Shown piece by piece: positions 7,906 through 39,397 of a stretch of DNA of 64,000 nt. The DNA comes from an uncultured Chloroflexia bacterium (GTDB taxonomy: Bacteria > Chloroflexota > Limnocylindria > QHBO01). Numbering within the stretch: position 1 is the first letter of the stretch; every line of letters starts with the position of its first letter. A program made the translations under genes and the position numbers. The stretch lies in contig CAVYSK010000013.1 of assembly GCA_963771155.1 (NCBI GenBank), positions 16,919 through 80,918 of the forward strand, given 5' to 3'. The notes beneath the pieces are model-generated. The model worked only from the letters and a program-made list of their open reading frames with translations, was not told where the DNA came from and ran no database searches.

Positions 7906-8790
7906 TCACAGCACCTTCGCGAAAGTCGGCTCGAGCCGCTTGAAGACGACGGTCGCGACGGCCACGAAGCCGATGCTGACGACCAACAGGATGCCGAGCG
8001 CGGCCCAGTCCGGCATGACCGGCGGCCCGTCGGGCGTGCCGTAGATCACGCTGCGATAGGCCTCGAACAGGATGGCGAACGGATTGAGGCTGGCGAGCGT
8101 GATGAGCACCGGGTTCTCCTGGAAGAACGGCACCTCCTCGAGCATCGCCAGGCTGTACAGGCCCGGCGACAGGTAGAACCACAGCCGCAGCAGGTGCCGC
8201 ATCACGTTGGCGAGGTCGCGGACGAAGACGTTGCCGGCCGCGACGAGCAGCGCCACTCCGAGCGTGAACACGTACTGCACCACGGCGATGACCGGCACGA
8301 GCAGGATGAGCGGCGAGAGGCGGTCGAGGTACAGGAGCATGATCCCGGCGAGGGTCACCATCCCGAACCCGAACCCGACCACGCCGGCGGTCACCGCGGC
8401 GATCGGGAGCACCACCTTGGGGAACGCGATCTGCTTGATCAGCCGATGCTGGTTGACGATCGAGCCGGTCGAGTCGGTCACCGCGGAGGTGAACCACTTC
8501 CACGGCAGGATGGCGGCGAAGATGAACAGCGGGTAATCATCGACGGGGCGTTGGGCGATGATCGCCACCAGCACCACGTATACCAGCATGAGCAGCAGCG
8601 GATCGAGGACCCACCACAGGTTGCCGAGGAACGTGTTGGCGCCGCGGCGCTTGATGTCGGCCTGGACGAGGTAGCGGACCAGCCGGCGGCGGGAGATGAC
8701 GTCGCGGGTGGCCTCGCCGATCAGCGCGAGCGGGCCCGACCGGGCTGCGGCGTTGCGGAACGCCGCCGGCGCCTCACTCGTGATGGACAT
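7906..8790 (-). CDS. tagG: ABC-2 type polymer-export permease (TagG/Wzm-like)
   Basis: Start at ATG 8790 (MSITSEAP...). Multiple hydrophobic spans and a FLGNLWWVLDPLL region typical of ABC-2 permeases. Immediately upstream of the ATPase gene. Confidence 0.85.
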   Translation of the reverse strand: MSITSEAPAAFRNAAARSGPLALIGEATRDVISRRRLVRYLVQADIKRRGANTFLGNLWWVLDPLLLMLVYVVLVAIIAQRPVDDYPLFIFAAILPWKWFTSAVTDSTGSIVNQHRLIKQIAFPKVVLPIAAVTAGVVGFGFGMVTLAGIMLLYLDRLSPLILLVPVIAVVQYVFTLGVALLVAAGNVFVRDLANVMRHLLRLWFYLSPGLYSLAMLEEVPFFQENPVLITLASLNPFAILFEAYRSVIYGTPDGPPVMPDWAALGILLVVSIGFVAVATVVFKRLEPTFAKVL

Positions 8791-9949
8791 GCGCCGGCAG
8801 CCTATCACGGGCCTTGAGCGAGCCCGCGGCAGGAGCGAATCGGTCGACGAACCGCGCGCTGGCGCGCCCATCGGACACCGCCAGGTGGCGCTGGACGAAC
8901 GCGTCGTATGCGTCGAGGTCGAAGTCGCCGGACAGGATCGCGGCGGCGACCGCATCGGTGTCGGCCACGTGGGTGCCGATCATGCCGGTGCGGTACTCGA
9001 TGTACATCCCGGGGTCGCGCTCGTACCGCTCGAGGTCGCCCACGATGAGGACGAGCGGACGTCGGAGCAGCGCCCACTCGAATATCGACGAGGAGTAGTC
9101 GGTGACGAGCACGTCGGTGACGGTGAAGACCTCGTTGATCTCGGCGGTGTAGTCGATGACCACGTCATAGCCCGCCGTTGGCGTGGCGGCGGGGTCGAGA
9201 TTCGGGTGGGTCTTGAGCACCAGCGCATGGTCCGCCGGCAGGGCGGCGCGCAGCCGCTCGGCGTCGAAGCCCGGCGGCGGACGCTTCGCCTCGCCGGCCC
9301 CGCGGAAGGTGGGCGCGTACAGCACGACCCTCCGGTCGCGCAGCTGCGGGTAGGCGACGAGCAGCCGCTCGCGCGCGGCGGCTATCGCATCGGCGTCGAA
9401 GAAGAAGTCGGTCCTGGGCGACCCGAGGGCCAGGACACGCTTCATCGGCGTGCGGAGCGCGTACGAGTAGGGACCGCGTGCCGCTTCACCGCCGACCACG
9501 ACGAAGTCGTAGTTGCGGTGCAGGAACCGCCGCTCCGAGGGATGCCGCAGGGCCGGCGCATCGAGCCCGAAGCGCTTCAGGGCGCCGGCCGCGTGCCAGA
9601 CCTGGACGACCGTCGTCTCGGGACGATGCGGAACGACGTGCACCGGGAAGTACGCGTTGTCGATCACGACCAGCCGCGACGTCTGCAGGTAGTAGGCGCC
9701 GCGGACGAGGCGCACGAAGTAGCGCAGCTTTGCGAGCCAGCCATAGCTGTACGGCTCGAGGAGGAAGACGCACTCGACGTCCGGTCGCTGGGTGTGCATC
9801 GCGCGGTGGATGGACGCCAGGTTGCCGTCGAGGACCGGGGTGCGGGCGGTCGCGAACACGACGCGATGGGAATGGAACGGGAAGTGCGCGAAGATGCGCC
9901 CGAGGATGCCGAGCAGCGTGCTCGCCAGCAGGTACTCGAGCCAGCCCAT
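8774..9949 (-). CDS. CDP-glycerol/alditol-phosphate transferase family protein (TagF/TagB-like), paralog 1
   Basis: 391-aa ORF with conserved TagF-family blocks VVQVWHAAGALKRFG, VVLYAPTFRG and VLVTDYSSSIFE. Confidence 0.85.
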   Translation of the reverse strand: MGWLEYLLASTLLGILGRIFAHFPFHSHRVVFATARTPVLDGNLASIHRAMHTQRPDVECVFLLEPYSYGWLAKLRYFVRLVRGAYYLQTSRLVVIDNAYFPVHVVPHRPETTVVQVWHAAGALKRFGLDAPALRHPSERRFLHRNYDFVVVGGEAARGPYSYALRTPMKRVLALGSPRTDFFFDADAIAAARERLLVAYPQLRDRRVVLYAPTFRGAGEAKRPPPGFDAERLRAALPADHALVLKTHPNLDPAATPTAGYDVVIDYTAEINEVFTVTDVLVTDYSSSIFEWALLRRPLVLIVGDLERYERDPGMYIEYRTGMIGTHVADTDAVAAAILSGDFDLDAYDAFVQRHLAVSDGRASARFVDRFAPAAGSLKARDRLPAHVHHE

Positions 9950-11365: not shown

Positions 11366-11502
11366 CCACCGCCTCCACCACTGCCGCAGCGGCCGTGGGG
11401 GCCGCTGGGTCCGCGTGATTGTACGGGCCGCGGGGCCGGCGTCGGACGGAGGCCCGGCATCCTGCGAGGCTGCCGACGCGCCCAGCCGATATCATCCGGC
11501 GC

Positions 11503-13155
11503 GTGCCAGACACGGACGCGCCGAAGCCGACCGCGGACGGGCCGACTGGCCCGAGGGTCGCGCTCGCCGCCATCGGGTGGGAGCGCAGTCCAGCTCGTGC
11601 TGACCCTGCGCGTCGATGGCGCCGACTCCGTGTCGGACCCTCACCTGCACCGCGAGGTCGCGGTGGACCGGGAACCGCCGGCACCCATGCCCCCGACCTG
11701 GAGCGGTCGCGGCGACGGCGGCCGCACGTCCTTCGGTTCAACATCATGCTCGGGCCGAGGCAGGCACCGTTGGCACCGGGCAGGTGGGCACTCATGCACC
11801 GGCCATCGGATGGCGAGCCCGTTCCGCTCATCGTGGCCGGTGCCGACCCGATCGAGGTCTTCCTGGCCGAGCGCACGTTCCGTCACCGCGGCGGGTGGCA
11901 CCGCATCGTCCCGGCGGTCGAGCGCGACTCCGGGATCCTGCGTCTCGAGATCGTCCGTCGCCGTCGTCGCGGTCGCCGGCGGCCGTGGTACCGCCGCCTC
12001 CGACCGTCGTGGGCGACCCCGTCCGGAATCCGCCGCCGCGTGTTCGCCGCCCTGCTCGCCTGGCACCGCGCCACCGGCGGGCGGAACGGACACCGAATCG
12101 TATTCACCTCCGACTCGCACGCCGCCTTGACCGGCAACCTCGCCGTGGTTCACGACCGGATGGTCGCGCGCGGGCTCGACCGCGACTACGAGCTGACGAC
12201 GATCTTCAAGCCGAGCGTGACCGCGAGCCGCAGCTGGGGCGACCGATGGCGACTGCCTCGGCTCCTCGCGCAAGCCGACGTGATCCTCCTCGACGACTAT
12301 CAGCCGGTCATCTACCGCCTGCCATCCGACCCCAGCCAGCGGATCATCCAGCTGTGGCACGCATCTGGGGCCCTCAAGACGGTCGGCTACAGCCGCGTCG
12401 GGAAGCCGGGCGGGCCGAGCCCGTACTGGCGCCGCCACAAGAACTACACCTTCGCCATCGTCAGCGGCCAGCACGACGTCCCGTACTACGCCGAGGCGTT
12501 CGGCCTGCCCGAGGAGCGAGTCGCGCCCACCGGCATCCCGCGCATGGACCGCTTCTTCGACGAGCAGCAGCGCGCCGCCGGGCGGGAGGCGGCGATGGCC
12601 GCGCTGCCATCGATCGCGGGGCACCGGGTAATCCTGTTTGCGCCGACATTTCGGGGGCATGGTCCGCGCGACGCCTGGTACGACTACGATCGGGTGGACT
12701 GGGCCGGTCTGCACACCGCAGCCACCGCGTGCGACGCGGTGGTGATCGTGAAGATGCATCCGTTCGTCAGTGAGCCGGCGCCGATCCCGAACGCCCTCCG
12801 TGACCGGATCGTCGACGCCACCAAGACGGCGATCGACGTCAACGACCTGCTCTTCGCGGTCGATCTGCTCGTCACCGACTACTCCTCGATCGTGTTCGAG
12901 TTCTCCACCCTGCTGAAGCCGATGCTCTTCTTCGCGTACGACCTGGAGGAGTACGTCGCCAGCCGCGACTTCTACGTCCCGTTCGAGGAGTTCGTCCCCG
13001 GCCGCATCGCGCGCACGTTCGATGAGGTGCTCGACGCGATCCATAACGACGCCTACGACCAGGACAAGGTCGCCTCATTCGCGCGTCGCCACTTCGACCA
13101 CCTCGATGGCAGCGCCACGGACCGTGTCATCGACGAGCTGATCATCGCCCGGTGA
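11503..13155 (+). CDS. TagF-family polyol-phosphate transferase, paralog 2, with N-terminal extension (internally frame-switched segment)
   Basis: C-terminal 380 aa carry TagF blocks IIQLWHASGALKTVG, VILFAPTFRG and LLVTDYSSIVFE. GTG 11503 lies 7 nt after a TATCAT box (leaderless-type). Codon bias moves to another frame between about 11584 and 11736 and then returns, although the ORF stays open. A conservative start is ATG 11746. Confidence 0.75.
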   Translation: MPDTDAPKPTADGPTGPRVALAAIGWERSPARADPARRWRRLRVGPSPAPRGRGGPGTAGTHAPDLERSRRRRPHVLRFNIMLGPRQAPLAPGRWALMHRPSDGEPVPLIVAGADPIEVFLAERTFRHRGGWHRIVPAVERDSGILRLEIVRRRRRGRRRPWYRRLRPSWATPSGIRRRVFAALLAWHRATGGRNGHRIVFTSDSHAALTGNLAVVHDRMVARGLDRDYELTTIFKPSVTASRSWGDRWRLPRLLAQADVILLDDYQPVIYRLPSDPSQRIIQLWHASGALKTVGYSRVGKPGGPSPYWRRHKNYTFAIVSGQHDVPYYAEAFGLPEERVAPTGIPRMDRFFDEQQRAAGREAAMAALPSIAGHRVILFAPTFRGHGPRDAWYDYDRVDWAGLHTAATACDAVVIVKMHPFVSEPAPIPNALRDRIVDATKTAIDVNDLLFAVDLLVTDYSSIVFEFSTLLKPMLFFAYDLEEYVASRDFYVPFEEFVPGRIARTFDEVLDAIHNDAYDQDKVASFARRHFDHLDGSATDRVIDELIIAR

Positions 13156-14321
13156 GCGCGCTCGTCGTCGTCATTCGCACCTGGCTGGTCCGCATCGGCT
13201 TCGCGCTCGGCTCGATGGGTCCGACGCCGCGGCGCGTCCTCATCGCGACCGCCCACGCGGATCGCCCGGCCGGCAACCTCGCGGCGATCCGGCGCGAGCT
13301 GGCCTCGCGGCATCCAACGGTGTCGGTGCGCGTCCTTGCCCATCGGACGAGCGGCGGCTGGGGTGGCCGGCTGGCCGGTGCGGTGGCCGCGGTCCGGGCC
13401 GGATACGCGATCGCCCGGGCGCGGGTGATCGTGATCGACGACTACTTCTTCCCGCTGTACGTCGTGTCCCCGCGTCCGGGGACCACGGTCCTCCAAACCT
13501 GGCACGCGTCGGGTGCCTTCAAGCGGTTCGGCCACAGCGTACGCGACGCGACCTTCGGCGCCGATGCGGCCCTCACGCAGCGCGTGCGGATCCACGCCAA
13601 CTACGACGTCTGCCTCGTCGGCTCGGCCGAGGCGGCACCCTGGTACGCAGAGGCGTTCGGGCTGCCGCTCGACCGATTCCGCTGGGATCTCGGCATCCCC
13701 CGCACCGATCCGCTCGTCGACCCGGATGGGAGGGCCGCGGCCGAGCGCCGCGTCCGGGAGCGCCATGGCATCCCCGACGGCCGCCAGATCATCCTCTGGG
13801 CGCCGACGTTCCGAGGCGACCGGGTTACCGACGCCCGCGATCCCGGGGCCCTGGACCTCGCGCGGATCGCATCGGTGCTCAGCGACGACTACGTGCTGCT
13901 GCTCCGCCTCCATCCCTTTGTTCGGGCCTCGACGCCGGTTCCGGCGGAGGCGGCAGGGTTCGTGCGCGACGCGAGCGGCGACGCGGACATCAACGAGCTG
14001 ATGCTGGCGGCCGATGTGCTCGTCACCGACTACTCGAGCCTGATCTTCGAGTACAGCCTGCTCGAGCGGCCGATGGCGTTCTTCGCGCCCGACCTCGAGG
14101 CCTACGAGCGAGAGCGAGGGTTCTACGTCGACGTCCGGAGCTGGGTCCCGGGTCCGGTGTTCACCACCACCGACGAGCTCGCGTCCTGGCTGCGCCACGG
14201 CACGCCGGATCTCGATCGCGTGCGACGCTTCCGAGCGTCCGCGTTCGCCGTGGCGGACGGCAGGGCAACCGAGCGGGTCGTCGACCGCGTGATCGTCCCC
14301 GGGCTCGATGCCCCCGGCTGA
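13152..14321 (+). CDS. TagF-family polyol-phosphate transferase, paralog 3
   Basis: 389-aa ORF with blocks VLQTWHASGAFKRFG, IILWAPTFRG and VLVTDYSSLIFE. Its start overlaps the paralog 2 stop. Confidence 0.85.
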   Translation: MSALVVVIRTWLVRIGFALGSMGPTPRRVLIATAHADRPAGNLAAIRRELASRHPTVSVRVLAHRTSGGWGGRLAGAVAAVRAGYAIARARVIVIDDYFFPLYVVSPRPGTTVLQTWHASGAFKRFGHSVRDATFGADAALTQRVRIHANYDVCLVGSAEAAPWYAEAFGLPLDRFRWDLGIPRTDPLVDPDGRAAAERRVRERHGIPDGRQIILWAPTFRGDRVTDARDPGALDLARIASVLSDDYVLLLRLHPFVRASTPVPAEAAGFVRDASGDADINELMLAADVLVTDYSSLIFEYSLLERPMAFFAPDLEAYERERGFYVDVRSWVPGPVFTTTDELASWLRHGTPDLDRVRRFRASAFAVADGRATERVVDRVIVPGLDAPG

Positions 14322-17008: not shown

Positions 17009-17200
17009 GTGTCCTCGACCCCCACCAGTCAGCGCCGATACGTGACCTGGCGCCTTCCGGATCGCCACTTCAGCAAGGTCCATCTCGTCGGCGAGCCCGG
17101 CTCCACCGTCTGTGGCCGAGCCCTTCCGCGGGCCATCGGGCAGCCGAAGGCGCCGATCCCCGACTCGGAGATGTGCCCAGACTGCGACGCCCAGGGCTGA
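17009..17200 (+). CDS. small Cys-containing hypothetical protein (possible zinc-ribbon)
   Basis: The GC3-rich portion of ORF 16931..17200 starts at GTG 17009 with GGAG about 10 nt upstream. Contains TVCGR...MCPDC cysteines. Function unknown. Confidence 0.4.
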   Translation: MSSTPTSQRRYVTWRLPDRHFSKVHLVGEPGSTVCGRALPRAIGQPKAPIPDSEMCPDCDAQG

Positions 17201-17213
17201 TCTCGCGCATCTC

Positions 17214-17771
17214 ATGGCATCTTCGCCGGCCGCCGACGACCTCGGCGGCCGGTTCGTCGTCCTCTCCATCCCCGACGACGCCCTGGTCGTGCTCATCGGC
17301 ATCGCCGGCAGCGGCAAGTCCACGTTCGCGGCGCGCCACTTCGGCCCGACCGAAGTGCTCTCGTCCGATGCCATGCGGGCCATCATCGCCGATGACCCGC
17401 ATGCCCAGGGTGCCACCGACGACGCGTTCGACCTCCTGCATCGCCTGCTCGCGATGCGTCTGCGCCGGGGTCGGCGGACCGTCGTCGACGCCACGAACGT
17501 CGAGGGCTGGGCACGCGGGCAGCTGGTCGAGATCGCCCGCCGCCATCGCCGCCCGGCCGTGGCGATCGTGCTGGACGTGCCGATCGAGGTCGCCATGGAA
17601 CGCAACCTGGCACGGCCTGAGCCGCGGCCCCCGAACGCGGCGCTTCGACGCCAGCACCGGTGGCTTCAGCAGACGCTCCGCGAGCTCCCGGATGAGGGCT
17701 TTGCCGCCGTCCACCATCTCCGCGGGCCGGCGGAGATCGACGCGGTGCGCATCGAGCGGCAGAGGCGCTAG
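17214..17771 (+). CDS. AAA_33-type ATP-binding protein (polynucleotide-kinase-like P-loop kinase)
   Basis: ATG 17214. Walker A GIAGSGKST and VVDATN motif. Size and layout resemble stand-alone Pnkp-type kinase domains. Confidence 0.75.
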   Translation: MASSPAADDLGGRFVVLSIPDDALVVLIGIAGSGKSTFAARHFGPTEVLSSDAMRAIIADDPHAQGATDDAFDLLHRLLAMRLRRGRRTVVDATNVEGWARGQLVEIARRHRRPAVAIVLDVPIEVAMERNLARPEPRPPNAALRRQHRWLQQTLRELPDEGFAAVHHLRGPAEIDAVRIERQRR

Positions 17772-17779
17772 ACCCGCCC

Positions 17780-18046
17780 GGGCACGACGAAATGTCCCGA
17801 AGGAACAAGGCGGCCGACCTCGGTGACCGAAGCCACCGGTGCCGTCCGGTTCCTTCGGCCGAAGCCTCCGGACCCGGTCCCGGAACTCATGATCGAAATC
17901 GTGTGATCCGGTGTCGCTTGCCCCTTCGGGACGACCTCAGTATCGGGTCGCGGCCAGACGAGACGCAATACCGGTTATCCCCGAGATTGCGAGCCCGGGG
18001 CGGAGCTGTCCACAGCCCATCCACGACGGGCCCGGCAGCGCCGCGG
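17780..18046. repeat. 267-nt structured dispersed repeat, copy 1 (candidate ncRNA or MITE-like element)
   Basis: Identical to 38962..39228 at 265 of 267 positions by manual alignment, in the same orientation. Intergenic and dense with internal helices and UUCG/GNRA-like loops. The internal ORFs are not protein-like. Confidence 0.9.
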
Positions 18047-38136: not shown

Positions 38137-38883
38137 CTAGAGCGCGAGGGTCCTGCGCAGGAAGTCGAGGCGATCCGCGCGTGCCTCCGGCGCTCGCACG
38201 CCGTGATCGGCATCGTAGGCGTGAAGCTCCTTCGGCTCGGCCGCCGCACCGTGCAGCTCGAGCCCGGTCATGTCCGCGATGAAGAAGTCGGCCTTCGCGA
38301 ACTGGAGGCAGACCGGACGTGGGGCGAGCTCACCGATGCGGGTGATCGGATCGACCGGCGCCAGCGCTCGCAGGTAGTCCCACCGGTCGTCGACGATCGG
38401 CCAGAACGGCAGGAACCAGTCGCCCCAGCGTGGCGTGGGCGCGATGAGGACCGCGGCGGCGATTCGGTCGTCGTCCGCCGCCAGGTTCACGCCGTGCATG
38501 GCGCCGAAGTCGTGGCCGACGAGGCCGATGCGTCCCTGCTCCACGTCGTCGCGGCCGGCCAGCAGGTCGATCGCCTGCCGGTGACCGGCGACTTCGGCCC
38601 GGATTCGCGCCAGGTCAGCTTCGGCGTCGGTCGGCGCGCCGGCCCATGGGAAGCGGCCCTGCGGCAGGATCGAGACCACGCCGTGGTCGCGGGCCATGGC
38701 TTCCGCCTCCCCAAGAAACTGGTCGCGGTTGCCGTCGGGCGCCTCGGTGTCGAACCAGTGCAGCCACAGGATCGCGGCGCCCCGTCCGCCGTCGGCGGGC
38801 TCGATCAGCCACGCCTGGGAGCCATCGATGGTGAGGTCGTGGGCCAGGACGCCGTGCGGTTCGTCGTGCCTCGCGTTGGTCAT
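38137..38883 (-). CDS. alpha/beta hydrolase
   Basis: Start at ATG 38883 (MTNARHDEP...). Nucleophile-elbow-like motif LVGHDFGA. The track ORF extends 267 nt further only because it reads through repeat copy 2. Confidence 0.75.
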   Translation of the reverse strand: MTNARHDEPHGVLAHDLTIDGSQAWLIEPADGGRGAAILWLHWFDTEAPDGNRDQFLGEAEAMARDHGVVSILPQGRFPWAGAPTDAEADLARIRAEVAGHRQAIDLLAGRDDVEQGRIGLVGHDFGAMHGVNLAADDDRIAAAVLIAPTPRWGDWFLPFWPIVDDRWDYLRALAPVDPITRIGELAPRPVCLQFAKADFFIADMTGLELHGAAAEPKELHAYDADHGVRAPEARADRLDFLRRTLAL

Positions 38884-38961
38884 CGGTGCCTCGTCACTCC
38901 TCGCAGAACGTACGCCAACCGGCGTCTCGCCGTTCGATTCTCGCTCCACGCACAATTCGGA

Positions 38962-39228
38962 GGGCACGACGAAATGTCCCGGAGGAACAAGGCGGCCGAC
39001 CTCGGTGACCGAAGCCACCGGTGCCGTCCGGTTCCTTCGGCCGAAGCCTCCGGACCCGGTCCCGGAACTCATGATCGAAATCGTGTGATCCGGTGTCGCT
39101 TGCCCCTTCGGGACGACCTCAGTATCGGGTCGCGGCCAGACGAGACGCAATACCAGTTATCCCCGAGATTGCGAGCCCGGGGCGGAGCTGTCCACAGCCC
39201 ATCCACGACGGGCCCGGCAGCGCCGCGG
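38962..39228. repeat. 267-nt structured dispersed repeat, copy 2 (candidate ncRNA or MITE-like element)
   Basis: Matches 17780..18046 with differences only at 38982 (G vs A) and 39155 (A vs G). Lies between two minus-strand genes. Confidence 0.9.
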
Positions 39229-39235
39229 GCAGCCT

Positions 39236-39397
39236 TCAGACAGAGCGGCGGGTACCGGCGAGACCAAGCAGGCCGCCGGCGAACACCGACAACAGACCGA
39301 TCACCACCATCGCGAGGTTGCCCGCCAGCAGGAAGCCGAGGACGGCGATGACGACGCCGAGAACGATGAGGGTCGCCGAAGCGAAGTTCGTGTACAT
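39236..39397 (-). CDS. small hydrophobic membrane protein (53 aa; below the track length cutoff)
   Basis: Manual translation gives MYTNFASATLIVLGVVIAVLGFLLAGNLAMVVIGLLSVFAGGLLGLAGTRRSV, with two predicted TM spans and GC-rich third positions. Confidence 0.4.
   Translation of the reverse strand: MYTNFASATLIVLGVVIAVLGFLLAGNLAMVVIGLLSVFAGGLLGLAGTRRSV

Follow-up and report, generated by a model that had tools for sequence, protein, structure and literature searches.

Positions 38962-39228 of the 64,000-nucleotide (nt) stretch of Candidatus Limnocylindria DNA analysed here (Chloroflexota; contig CAVYSK010000013.1, hereafter the window) probably represent one of a pair of paralogues that encode a hitherto undescribed structured non-coding RNA (ncRNA) of ~200-240 nt, specific to Candidatus Limnocylindria, which would act in trans by binding a protein and whose copies would owe their near-identity to gene conversion or replacement. 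The parts of this reading differ in strength. We are confident that the element belongs to a conserved family of structured RNA genes kept at fixed loci and is not a mobile element, whereas for an action in trans through a bound protein we see at best an even chance. The 38962-39228 element is an old resident gene, neither a recent insertion nor simply the leader of the adjacent hydrolase gene.

The element is present twice in the window, at 17780-18046 (copy 1) and 38962-39228 (copy 2). Both copies are 267 nt long, lie on the same (minus) strand and are identical at 265 positions (2 differences), with an abrupt loss of similarity at each end. Copy 2 comprises ~20 nt of genome-specific upstream sequence, a promoter-like motif and the structured RNA gene, while copy 1 is found between the start of a divergent DUF1761 gene and the stop of a convergent AAA_33 kinase gene, 9 nt away. 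The initial annotation had described 38962-39228 as a second copy in a different gene context, and this is borne out, as are the distances it gave to the neighbouring genes: 7 nt from the right edge of copy 2 (39228) to the stop of a 53-amino acid (aa) open reading frame (ORF; 39236-39397), 78 nt from its left edge (38962) to the hydrolase ATG (38883), and 77 nt from the end of copy 1 to the DUF1761 ATG (18124). The resemblance between the last two spacings, to which attention had been drawn, is numerically correct but coincidental, since it involves the promoter-side end in copy 1 and the 3' end in copy 2. The repeat runs from GGGCACGACG... to ...GCGCCGCGG, and the bases next to it (CCCGCCC and TGATCCG for copy 1, TTCGGA and GCAGCC for copy 2) are neither shared nor duplicated. 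The flank-specific hairpins previously placed just beyond the right boundary have their first arm inside the repeat in both copies (CCGCGG at 18041-18046 and CGCCGC at 39221-39226) and are weak; the one at the edge of copy 2, with a 6-bp stem and an 18-nt loop, is unremarkable at 70% G+C. What remains of the earlier proposal of an independent inserted element is that the unit is indeed independent and not part of the hydrolase gene; insertion or mobility next to pre-existing stem-loops finds no support.

About 90 relatives of the element were recovered from metagenomes and metagenome-assembled genomes (MAGs), almost all of them assigned to Candidatus Limnocylindria, in whose MAGs the hydrolase beside copy 2 also has its close homologues. 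Nearly all family members were retrieved by exact 20-22-mers from the 5' strand of the closing helix described below: a 22-mer from the conserved block yielded 23 metagenome contigs, and a 20-mer 65 genome stretches, 63 of which hold a true copy as judged by nhmmer. The two others (from Rhizobium and a deltaproteobacterial MAG) are chance matches without a true copy. A genome scan with GGGGATAACNGGTATTGCGTC returned no matches; its AAC variant is confined to the subclade of the window, most copies having AAGTGG. The sources are mostly fragmentary MAGs, some of them chimeric, and many contigs break off within the element, as expected for a repeat. The set contains 65 distinct full-length copies, which fall into two size classes, short (~205 nt) and long (~237 nt). 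In one homologous contig (L001), the element upstream of the hydrolase gene is 88% identical to that of the window as compared to ~77% for the hydrolase DNA, so that it is better conserved than the coding DNA beside it, and the differences between the two elements are grouped in blocks. Four contigs binned as Steroidobacteraceae (L033 and L089), Binatia (L079) and Gaiellales (L072) carry the RNA together with Limnocylindria-type neighbours (56-86% protein identity) and are probably mis-binned.

RNAalifold predictions combined with manual inspection of the alignment show a long closing helix (P2) that encloses three arms, P3, P4 and P5, each capped by a C(UUCG)G loop, in a three- or four-way junction. 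In copy 2 this core domain forms a four-way junction and spans 38970-39130 on the minus strand (covariance model score of 170 bits, E ~6e-45, as compared to 26 bits on the plus strand); its counterpart in copy 1 spans 17788-17948, also on the minus strand (173.7 bits). The 5' strand of P2, GUCGUCCCGAAGGGGCAAGC(G) (39097-39114, minus strand), contains an inner 18-mer, GTCCCGAAGGGGCAAGCG, that is invariant in the family, including in 5 loci not selected by it, and helix 1 is 96% paired. The 3' strand, CGCCUUGUUCCUCCGGGAC (38976-38994, minus strand), changes almost exclusively between G-C and G-U or between U-A and U-G. The invariance of the 18-mer (GUCCCGAAGGGGCAAGCG) and of its partner strand extends to two fixed tandem G-U pairs and likewise holds in the five unselected copies. 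The outer arms, in turn, covary freely while keeping their pairing. P3 (39062-39093, minus strand) has compensatory changes at 7 of its 11 pairs, with 94% of cells paired, and P5 (38997-39026, minus strand) at 5 pairs, with 96-99% of cells paired. P4 (39028-39059, minus strand) is optional, being present in long copies and missing from short ones, and its helices contain 3 and 5 compensatory pairs. Three further pairings were considered and not adopted: P1 (GGUAUUG/CGAUACU), which is predicted by energy and lacks compensatory changes; a small alternative hairpin, P1', with 4 compensatory pairs but only 66% pairing; and a hairpin, H0, around the TGTGGACAG motif, whose 73% pairing is unconvincing, so that this motif was treated as DNA.

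In the MAFFT alignment of the 65 copies, 90% of cells are paired, compared to 34-53% when the partners are slid by 1-3 columns, and 18 pairs show compensatory changes; none of 500 column shuffles matches the observed values on four of five measures, and 8 of 500 do so on the fifth. A covariance model built from the 160-position core aligns 76 copies with 94.2% of cells paired and 23 compensatory pairs, as opposed to 6-9 in the slid controls and with no match among 500 shuffles, although this alignment leans toward the model by construction. Compensatory changes thus exceed the controls as would be expected of a conserved ncRNA, in a sample that is biased by the search pattern. When the window is searched with the model and with filters off, just two minus-strand places are returned, 17788-17948 (174 bits) and 38970-39130 (170 bits); there the plus strand reaches only 26-29 bits, and the best match elsewhere in the window has 13 bits. 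Furthermore, G-U pairs make up 17.7% of the paired cells, and pairing drops from 90.0% on this strand to 73.8% if the opposite one is read. Based on the G-U pairs and the covariance-model scores, the RNA is predicted to be read from the minus strand. The element itself is not coding, as judged from the length difference of ~32 nt between long and short copies (not a multiple of three), the block-wise substitutions and the low G+C content at third codon positions (GC3).

The same observations bear on the idea that the element works at the level of DNA rather than RNA, either as a cluster of protein-binding sites similar to DnaA boxes or as a pair of palindromes to which a dimeric protein binds. 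The conserved 5' part contains three plus-strand 9-mers in one orientation, CTGTCCACA, CATCCACGA and TTATCCCCG, which we take to resemble DnaA boxes (TTATCCACA/TTGTCCACA), and both strands of P2 are near-palindromic and invariant. However, the covariation of P3-P5 and the abundance of G-U pairs are meaningful only for an RNA of the minus strand, no GC-skew switch or other origin signal is seen in the window, and a DNA-binding role of the 5' motif is already part of the explanation we favour, as a promoter or operator. We consider a purely DNA-level element very unlikely, and a replication origin or DnaA-box cluster was rejected for lack of a supporting skew signal in the window.

The RNA structure also bears on the ORF at 38137-39150 (minus strand), which, as had been pointed out, reads in frame through the element into the alpha/beta hydrolase gene. 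The ORF is 337 aa long and starts with TTG (39150). The suspicion that it is an annotation artefact was well founded: homologues of the hydrolase are 241-256 aa long, the extension has a lower GC3 than the core (0.70 vs 0.89) and it overlaps the covarying RNA structure, indicating that the 337-aa ORF results from read-through across the RNA gene. The true coding sequence, 38137-38883 (minus strand), encodes 248 aa, matches a public protein of the same length at 100% identity and belongs to Pfam Abhydrolase_1, with a G+C content at second codon positions (GC2) of 0.48. The false N-terminal extension, 38884-39150 (minus strand), has a GC2 of 0.58 and is absent from the homologues. A JGI protein, P0002 (336 aa), was examined as a possible instance of the same artefact and rejected, since it starts after the element. 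This protein (L001:966-1976) is 88 aa longer than other homologues, and the DNA for the N-terminus of the window hydrolase aligns to its gene twice in tandem (1037-1314 and from 1317 onward), pointing to a duplication within the gene or to an error of assembly.

Upstream of the structured core, conservation within the family has a sharp onset at tCGTGGAyGnnnTGTGGAyAG, in which GTGGAY is directly repeated at a distance of 11 bp. In copy 2 this motif, TCGTGGATGGGCTGTGGACAG (GTGGAY-N5-GTGGAY; 39188-39208, minus strand), is read as a -35 region combined with a transcription-factor site. A spacer of constant length (17 nt) but free sequence, in which conservation is at background, follows TGGAyA; conservation resumes at an nAAnnT hexamer, of which A2 and T6 are conserved, and continues into the almost invariant TCGGGGATAAG. 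The corresponding -10-like hexamer of copy 2 would be CAATCT (39166-39171, minus strand), 17 nt downstream of TGGACA. RNA genes account for all 79 occurrences of the double GTGGAY motif in the 574 kb of DNA fetched, and TGTGGAYAG is found in the window only at the two copies. We propose that the motif is the RNA's own promoter, with TGGACA as the -35 element, a 17-nt spacer and a weak -10 element that keeps A2 and T6, and that it may also carry the site for a putative regulator recognising the 11-bp-spaced direct repeat. Transcription would then start near CGGGGAUAA (39161-39165, CGGGG), just downstream of the -10-like hexamer; a start downstream rather than upstream of the motif is favoured by the position of the DmpA start, often ~20-55 nt from the motif at the locus of copy 1 (see below). 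The transcript is expected to end near GUGCCC (38962-38969): conservation in the family ceases ~14 nt past GGGAC, at GUGCCC or GUGUCC, and the tail can pair with the 5' GGGG.

Copies of the RNA gene reside mainly at two loci, with ~25 or more copies per locus and one constant orientation at each. Locus A, represented by copy 2, consists of a divergent S-adenosylmethionine (SAM)-methyltransferase gene, the conserved 53-aa hydrophobic ORF, the RNA, the co-oriented alpha/beta hydrolase gene and a gene for a NagA-like amidohydrolase; in many genomes SWEET, GH3 and MFS-MarR genes are also located upstream of the RNA. Locus B, represented by copy 1, begins with a peptidase S58 (DmpA) gene, which EamA and DUF1761 genes may or may not accompany. 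These genes all diverge from the RNA, which comes next and precedes the convergent AAA_33 kinase gene and a phosphofructokinase (PFK) gene. The divergent DmpA start is often ~20-55 nt from the upstream motif, and in more than 25 genomes the RNA ends ~5-470 nt (often less than 50 nt) from the stop of the convergent kinase gene. The kinase (17112-17771, plus strand, in the window) has a polynucleotide-kinase-like P-loop with weak similarity to KTI12 and is always arranged tail-to-tail with the RNA at locus B (>25 genomes); the adjacency of this possible RNA or nucleotide kinase to an RNA gene may or may not be functional. Copies outside the two loci adjoin glyoxalase and TctA genes (L008:687-888 and L059:6201-6405) or lack recognised neighbours (L043, L044, L052, L058 and L070), and a contig end may have cut some of the latter off from the rest of locus A or B; from these off-locus copies we conclude that a third locus exists in some genomes. 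In two contigs the upstream part of one locus is joined to the downstream part of the other: L025:192-398 combines EamA, RNA and the hydrolase leader, and L079:885-1121 combines MarR, RNA and the kinase. Either the RNA genes, which are direct repeats, have truly recombined in these contigs, or the assembly is chimeric at the repeat.

A gene arrangement such as that of locus A would also fit a cis-acting, riboswitch-like leader: the RNA would be transcribed from its own promoter and, in response to a signal, control read-through to the genes downstream. The target would be the hydrolase-NagA-like operon at locus A, while at locus B the RNA would run antisense across the convergent kinase gene and then into PFK. 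The next detected marker gene at locus A is co-oriented and mostly lies within ~20-350 nt of the RNA, PFK at locus B lies downstream in the same orientation, at 860-1170 nt, the RNA is not followed by a canonical terminator, and either strand of P2 could form a hairpin by itself (GUCCC-GAA-GGGGC and GUUCC-UUCG-GGAC), making a two-state switch conceivable from the sequence. However, what holds for the most part at locus A, namely a position upstream of a co-oriented gene, does not hold at locus B, where the RNA converges with the kinase gene and no co-oriented gene precedes PFK. The genes downstream at locus A are not constant either: the next one is usually the hydrolase gene, but in some genomes an amidohydrolase paralogue and in L095 a gene for a 520-aa protein, three genes there separating the RNA from the hydrolase gene. 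In several other locus A copies ~1.2 kb of other DNA lies in between; its gene content, checked in L012 only, is a co-oriented ORF there, and these copies otherwise have an intervening extra gene of unchecked orientation or none detected. Riboswitch and leader models of Rfam do not match the RNA, and the hydrolase gene has a conserved leader of its own (~75 nt) that is retained in L002, where the RNA is not adjacent. We therefore regard a cis-acting leader as unlikely. The initial annotation had named a conserved 5' leader of the hydrolase gene as the finding that would overturn an independent element; instead, at locus B the neighbour towards which the RNA is read is a convergent gene, 3' end first, and in L095 the RNA stands apart from the hydrolase gene. 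As to the ~75-nt hydrolase leader (38884-38961 in the window, and the 3' flanks of locus A copies such as L090, L025, L089 and L042), it is conserved separately, with 89% identity in L002, and has a CCGAAC(C) motif in many genomes. This stretch may act as a regulatory leader in its own right.

At first glance, two 99% identical copies with sharp boundaries and unrelated flanks suggest a non-autonomous mobile element inserted at two intergenic sites, similar to miniature inverted-repeat transposable elements (MITEs), short interspersed nuclear elements (SINEs) or palindrome-associated transposable elements (PATEs). Metagenome contigs that break inside the element, as they do at repeats, would fit such an origin, as would the within-genome identity that slightly exceeds the family-conserved core. 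Yet no terminal inverted repeats join the ends and no target site is duplicated, and the ends of the identical tract differ between genomes. A genome has only 2-3 copies, and across species-level diversity most of them occupy the same two loci without a change of orientation. No copy is found in the phage, plasmid or viral collections searched, and in the flanking genes examined we noticed none for a transposase, TnpB or IscB, for which no dedicated search was made. A comparison with orthologous loci, as the initial annotation had proposed, reveals no empty sites, since hydrolase loci fetched by protein homology, independently of the element, contain the RNA in 5 of 5 cases. In one 6-kb contig, L002, the element seems to be absent and similarity to the window begins within a few bases of its 3' edge, a break in synteny that could be taken for an empty site. 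We set this contig aside, as a three-gene insertion like that of L095 explains it best (L002 is too short to confirm it). Altogether, we consider insertion of a mobile element highly improbable.

Even less credible is an orphan guide RNA scaffold, resembling an omega-RNA or a tracrRNA, that would serve a protein encoded elsewhere and use the genome-specific upstream 20 nt as its guide. The size and the multi-helix fold of the RNA would suit such a scaffold, and ~10-28 nt of genome-specific sequence are homogenised together with it. Nevertheless, the variable segment lies upstream of the promoter-like motif, the upstream 20-mer has no other match in the window, omega-RNA-type families of Rfam are unmatched, and no TnpB-, IscB- or Cas-like gene was noticed beside any copy, no dedicated search having been made. 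The flanking genes identified encode the methyltransferase, the small ORF product, SWEET, MarR, MFS, the hydrolase, the amidohydrolase, peptidase S58, EamA, DUF1761, the AAA_33 kinase and PFK.

Why, then, are the two copies of the window nearly identical? We compared the copies within 15 genomes that have at least 2 typed copies. Identity between the A and B copies of a genome is bimodal: 98.5-100% in 7 genomes (including the window) and 76.5-84% in most others, with one pair at 91%. Between genomes, the medians for A-A, B-B and A-B comparisons are all ~81%. By clustering, locus-specific orthologues can still be recognised in some lineages, long at locus A and short at locus B, whereas elsewhere one form has overwritten the other. 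Moreover, the ends of the identical tract vary from genome to genome, lying 0-22 nt before TCGTGGA (up to 28 nt in one further genome) on one side and 8-30 nt beyond GGGAC on the other. The bimodal identity, the overwriting of locus-specific forms in some lineages and the variable tract ends suggest that the near-identity of the window copies arose by episodic gene conversion or replacement between paralogues rather than by transposition.

We favour a trans-acting regulatory RNA that would serve as a specific protein-binding platform rather than carry a short antisense seed, which is the weakest step of the proposed mechanism. An invariant core with covarying arms is more typical of specifically recognised RNAs than of small RNAs (sRNAs) that pair through a seed, and the helix invariant over 18 bp on both strands, including the two tandem G-U pairs, in combination with freely covarying peripheral arms points in this direction. 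Several observations weigh against the reading as a whole. The folding energy of single sequences is only marginally better than that of shuffled ones (z of -1.7 to -2.2), and the 5' third (P1/P1') is just 66-78% paired, in conflicting registers. A simple scan for the sigma-70 consensus does not call the motif as a promoter, a terminator scan finds no canonical intrinsic terminator after the RNA, and we infer transcription itself, as well as the start and the 3' end of the RNA, from sequence. The protein partner and the target of the RNA are putative, and the co-oriented gene after the RNA at locus A would also fit a leader or read-through role. Retrieval by exact matches leads to an underestimate of the diversity of the family and of the variability of P2, for which only the 5 unbiased copies correct. 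Finally, the copies of several genomes, this one among them, stay identical for 10-28 nt outside the part that is conserved in the family, which gene conversion strictly bounded by homology does not predict; on the promoter side these 10-28 nt are lineage-specific, and past the 3' end the identity continues for up to ~20 nt. The RNA might instead belong to a new functional class of structured RNAs, sensing a ligand or a protein or acting as a ribozyme, with the invariant 18-bp tandem G-U helix as its active or recognition core, or else be a self-homogenising RNA-gene cassette that overwrites its paralogues by a copy-replacement not bounded by homology; even taken together, we rate these two options as rather improbable.

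The RNA does not correspond to any family searched. A scan of the window against Rfam 15 gives no matches at the gathering score, copy 2 with its flanks produces only chance-level matches (13-14 bits, E of 5-6), and at 6 further loci the element is unmatched at E<=1. Blastn against plasmid and phage collections does not find the element, a scan of viral contigs returned one chance match without it, a scan for tRNA and tmRNA was negative, and a full-text literature search, by the organism with noncoding RNA and by core sequence strings, found no report. 6S RNA was considered and dismissed, given the three- or four-way junction in place of a single long rod with a central bubble and the lack of an Rfam 6S match. 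Judged by its sequence, the Limnocylindria RNA appears to constitute a lineage-specific, previously undescribed family of structured small-RNA genes.

In behaviour it would seem to resemble most closely the paralogous, independently transcribed sRNA families of bacteria that are under a dedicated regulator, such as GlmY/GlmZ, OmrA/OmrB, Qrr1-5 and RsmX/Y/Z, and GlmY/GlmZ and OmrA/B in particular. Like these, it is present in 2-3 homologous copies per genome, at separate loci, with a conserved upstream motif and structure, and distinct long and short paralogues coexist in many genomes. Unlike sRNAs of the GlmY/GlmZ type, to which it has no sequence or Rfam relationship, it is larger, has a three- or four-way junction and no canonical terminator, and comes from uncultured Chloroflexota. 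The raiA motif, ROOL, OLE and HEARO are large or medium-sized structured ncRNAs that were found by comparative genomics and form Rfam families. The Limnocylindria RNA shares with them its discovery through conservation and covariation only, its restriction to a lineage, its multiple helices and its invariant core, but it matches no Rfam model, is multi-copy and undergoes concerted evolution; in contrast to HEARO, no mobile-element protein accompanies it (no dedicated tnpB/iscB scan was made). MITEs and repeats of the repetitive extragenic palindromic (REP) or PATE type are likewise short, non-coding and intergenic, and their near-identical copies break metagenome assemblies, but the Limnocylindria RNA lacks inverted ends, target duplication and empty sites and is mostly confined to fixed loci, with 2-3 copies per genome. 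Concerted evolution is known for multi-copy RNA genes, including rRNA operons and duplicated tRNA and sRNA genes. As in the rRNA case, paralogues within a genome are often 98.5-100% identical when orthologues between genomes are ~81% identical; in contrast to it, homogenisation is episodic (about half of the genomes), and the tract is only ~210-290 nt long and can include unconserved flanking bases.

Candidatus Limnocylindria are abundant uncultured Chloroflexota of soil and freshwater, for which our literature search found no regulatory RNA reported. One RNA, one presumptive transcription-factor site and 2-3 fixed loci next to genes of sugar and amino-sugar metabolism offer a handle on regulation in this group, and the family is a clean natural case of a small RNA gene whose concerted evolution is episodic. 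The element also calls for caution in annotation: it gives rise to false ORF extensions (the 337-aa 'hydrolase'), breaks metagenome assemblies and probably generates chimeric contigs, and annotating the RNA would raise the quality of Limnocylindria MAGs.

The hydrophobic ORF upstream of copy 2 (39236-39397, minus strand; 53 aa) is a real, conserved gene for a small membrane protein and is not part of the element. Its tblastn homologues are 52-87% identical at locus A in many genomes, it has no Pfam match, and the gene was also called in L091, L092, L093 and L095. In most genomes, as at L091:5111-5560, L093:1283-1744 and L095:1696-2151, it is followed by a convergent gene for a 94-aa SWEET (MtN3_slv) protein. 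The window lacks this gene, and only 7 nt separate the ORF from the RNA unit there. Other repeats of the window, D2, I1 and I3 (~70% identity over 68-121 nt), lie inside the ORFs 8774-9949 (minus strand), 11419-13155 (plus strand) and 13152-14321 (plus strand). The three ORFs share motifs such as LVTDYSSxxFE and presumably encode paralogues of CDP-glycerol glycerophosphotransferase (TagF-like); these repeats represent coding paralogy and not a non-coding repeat.

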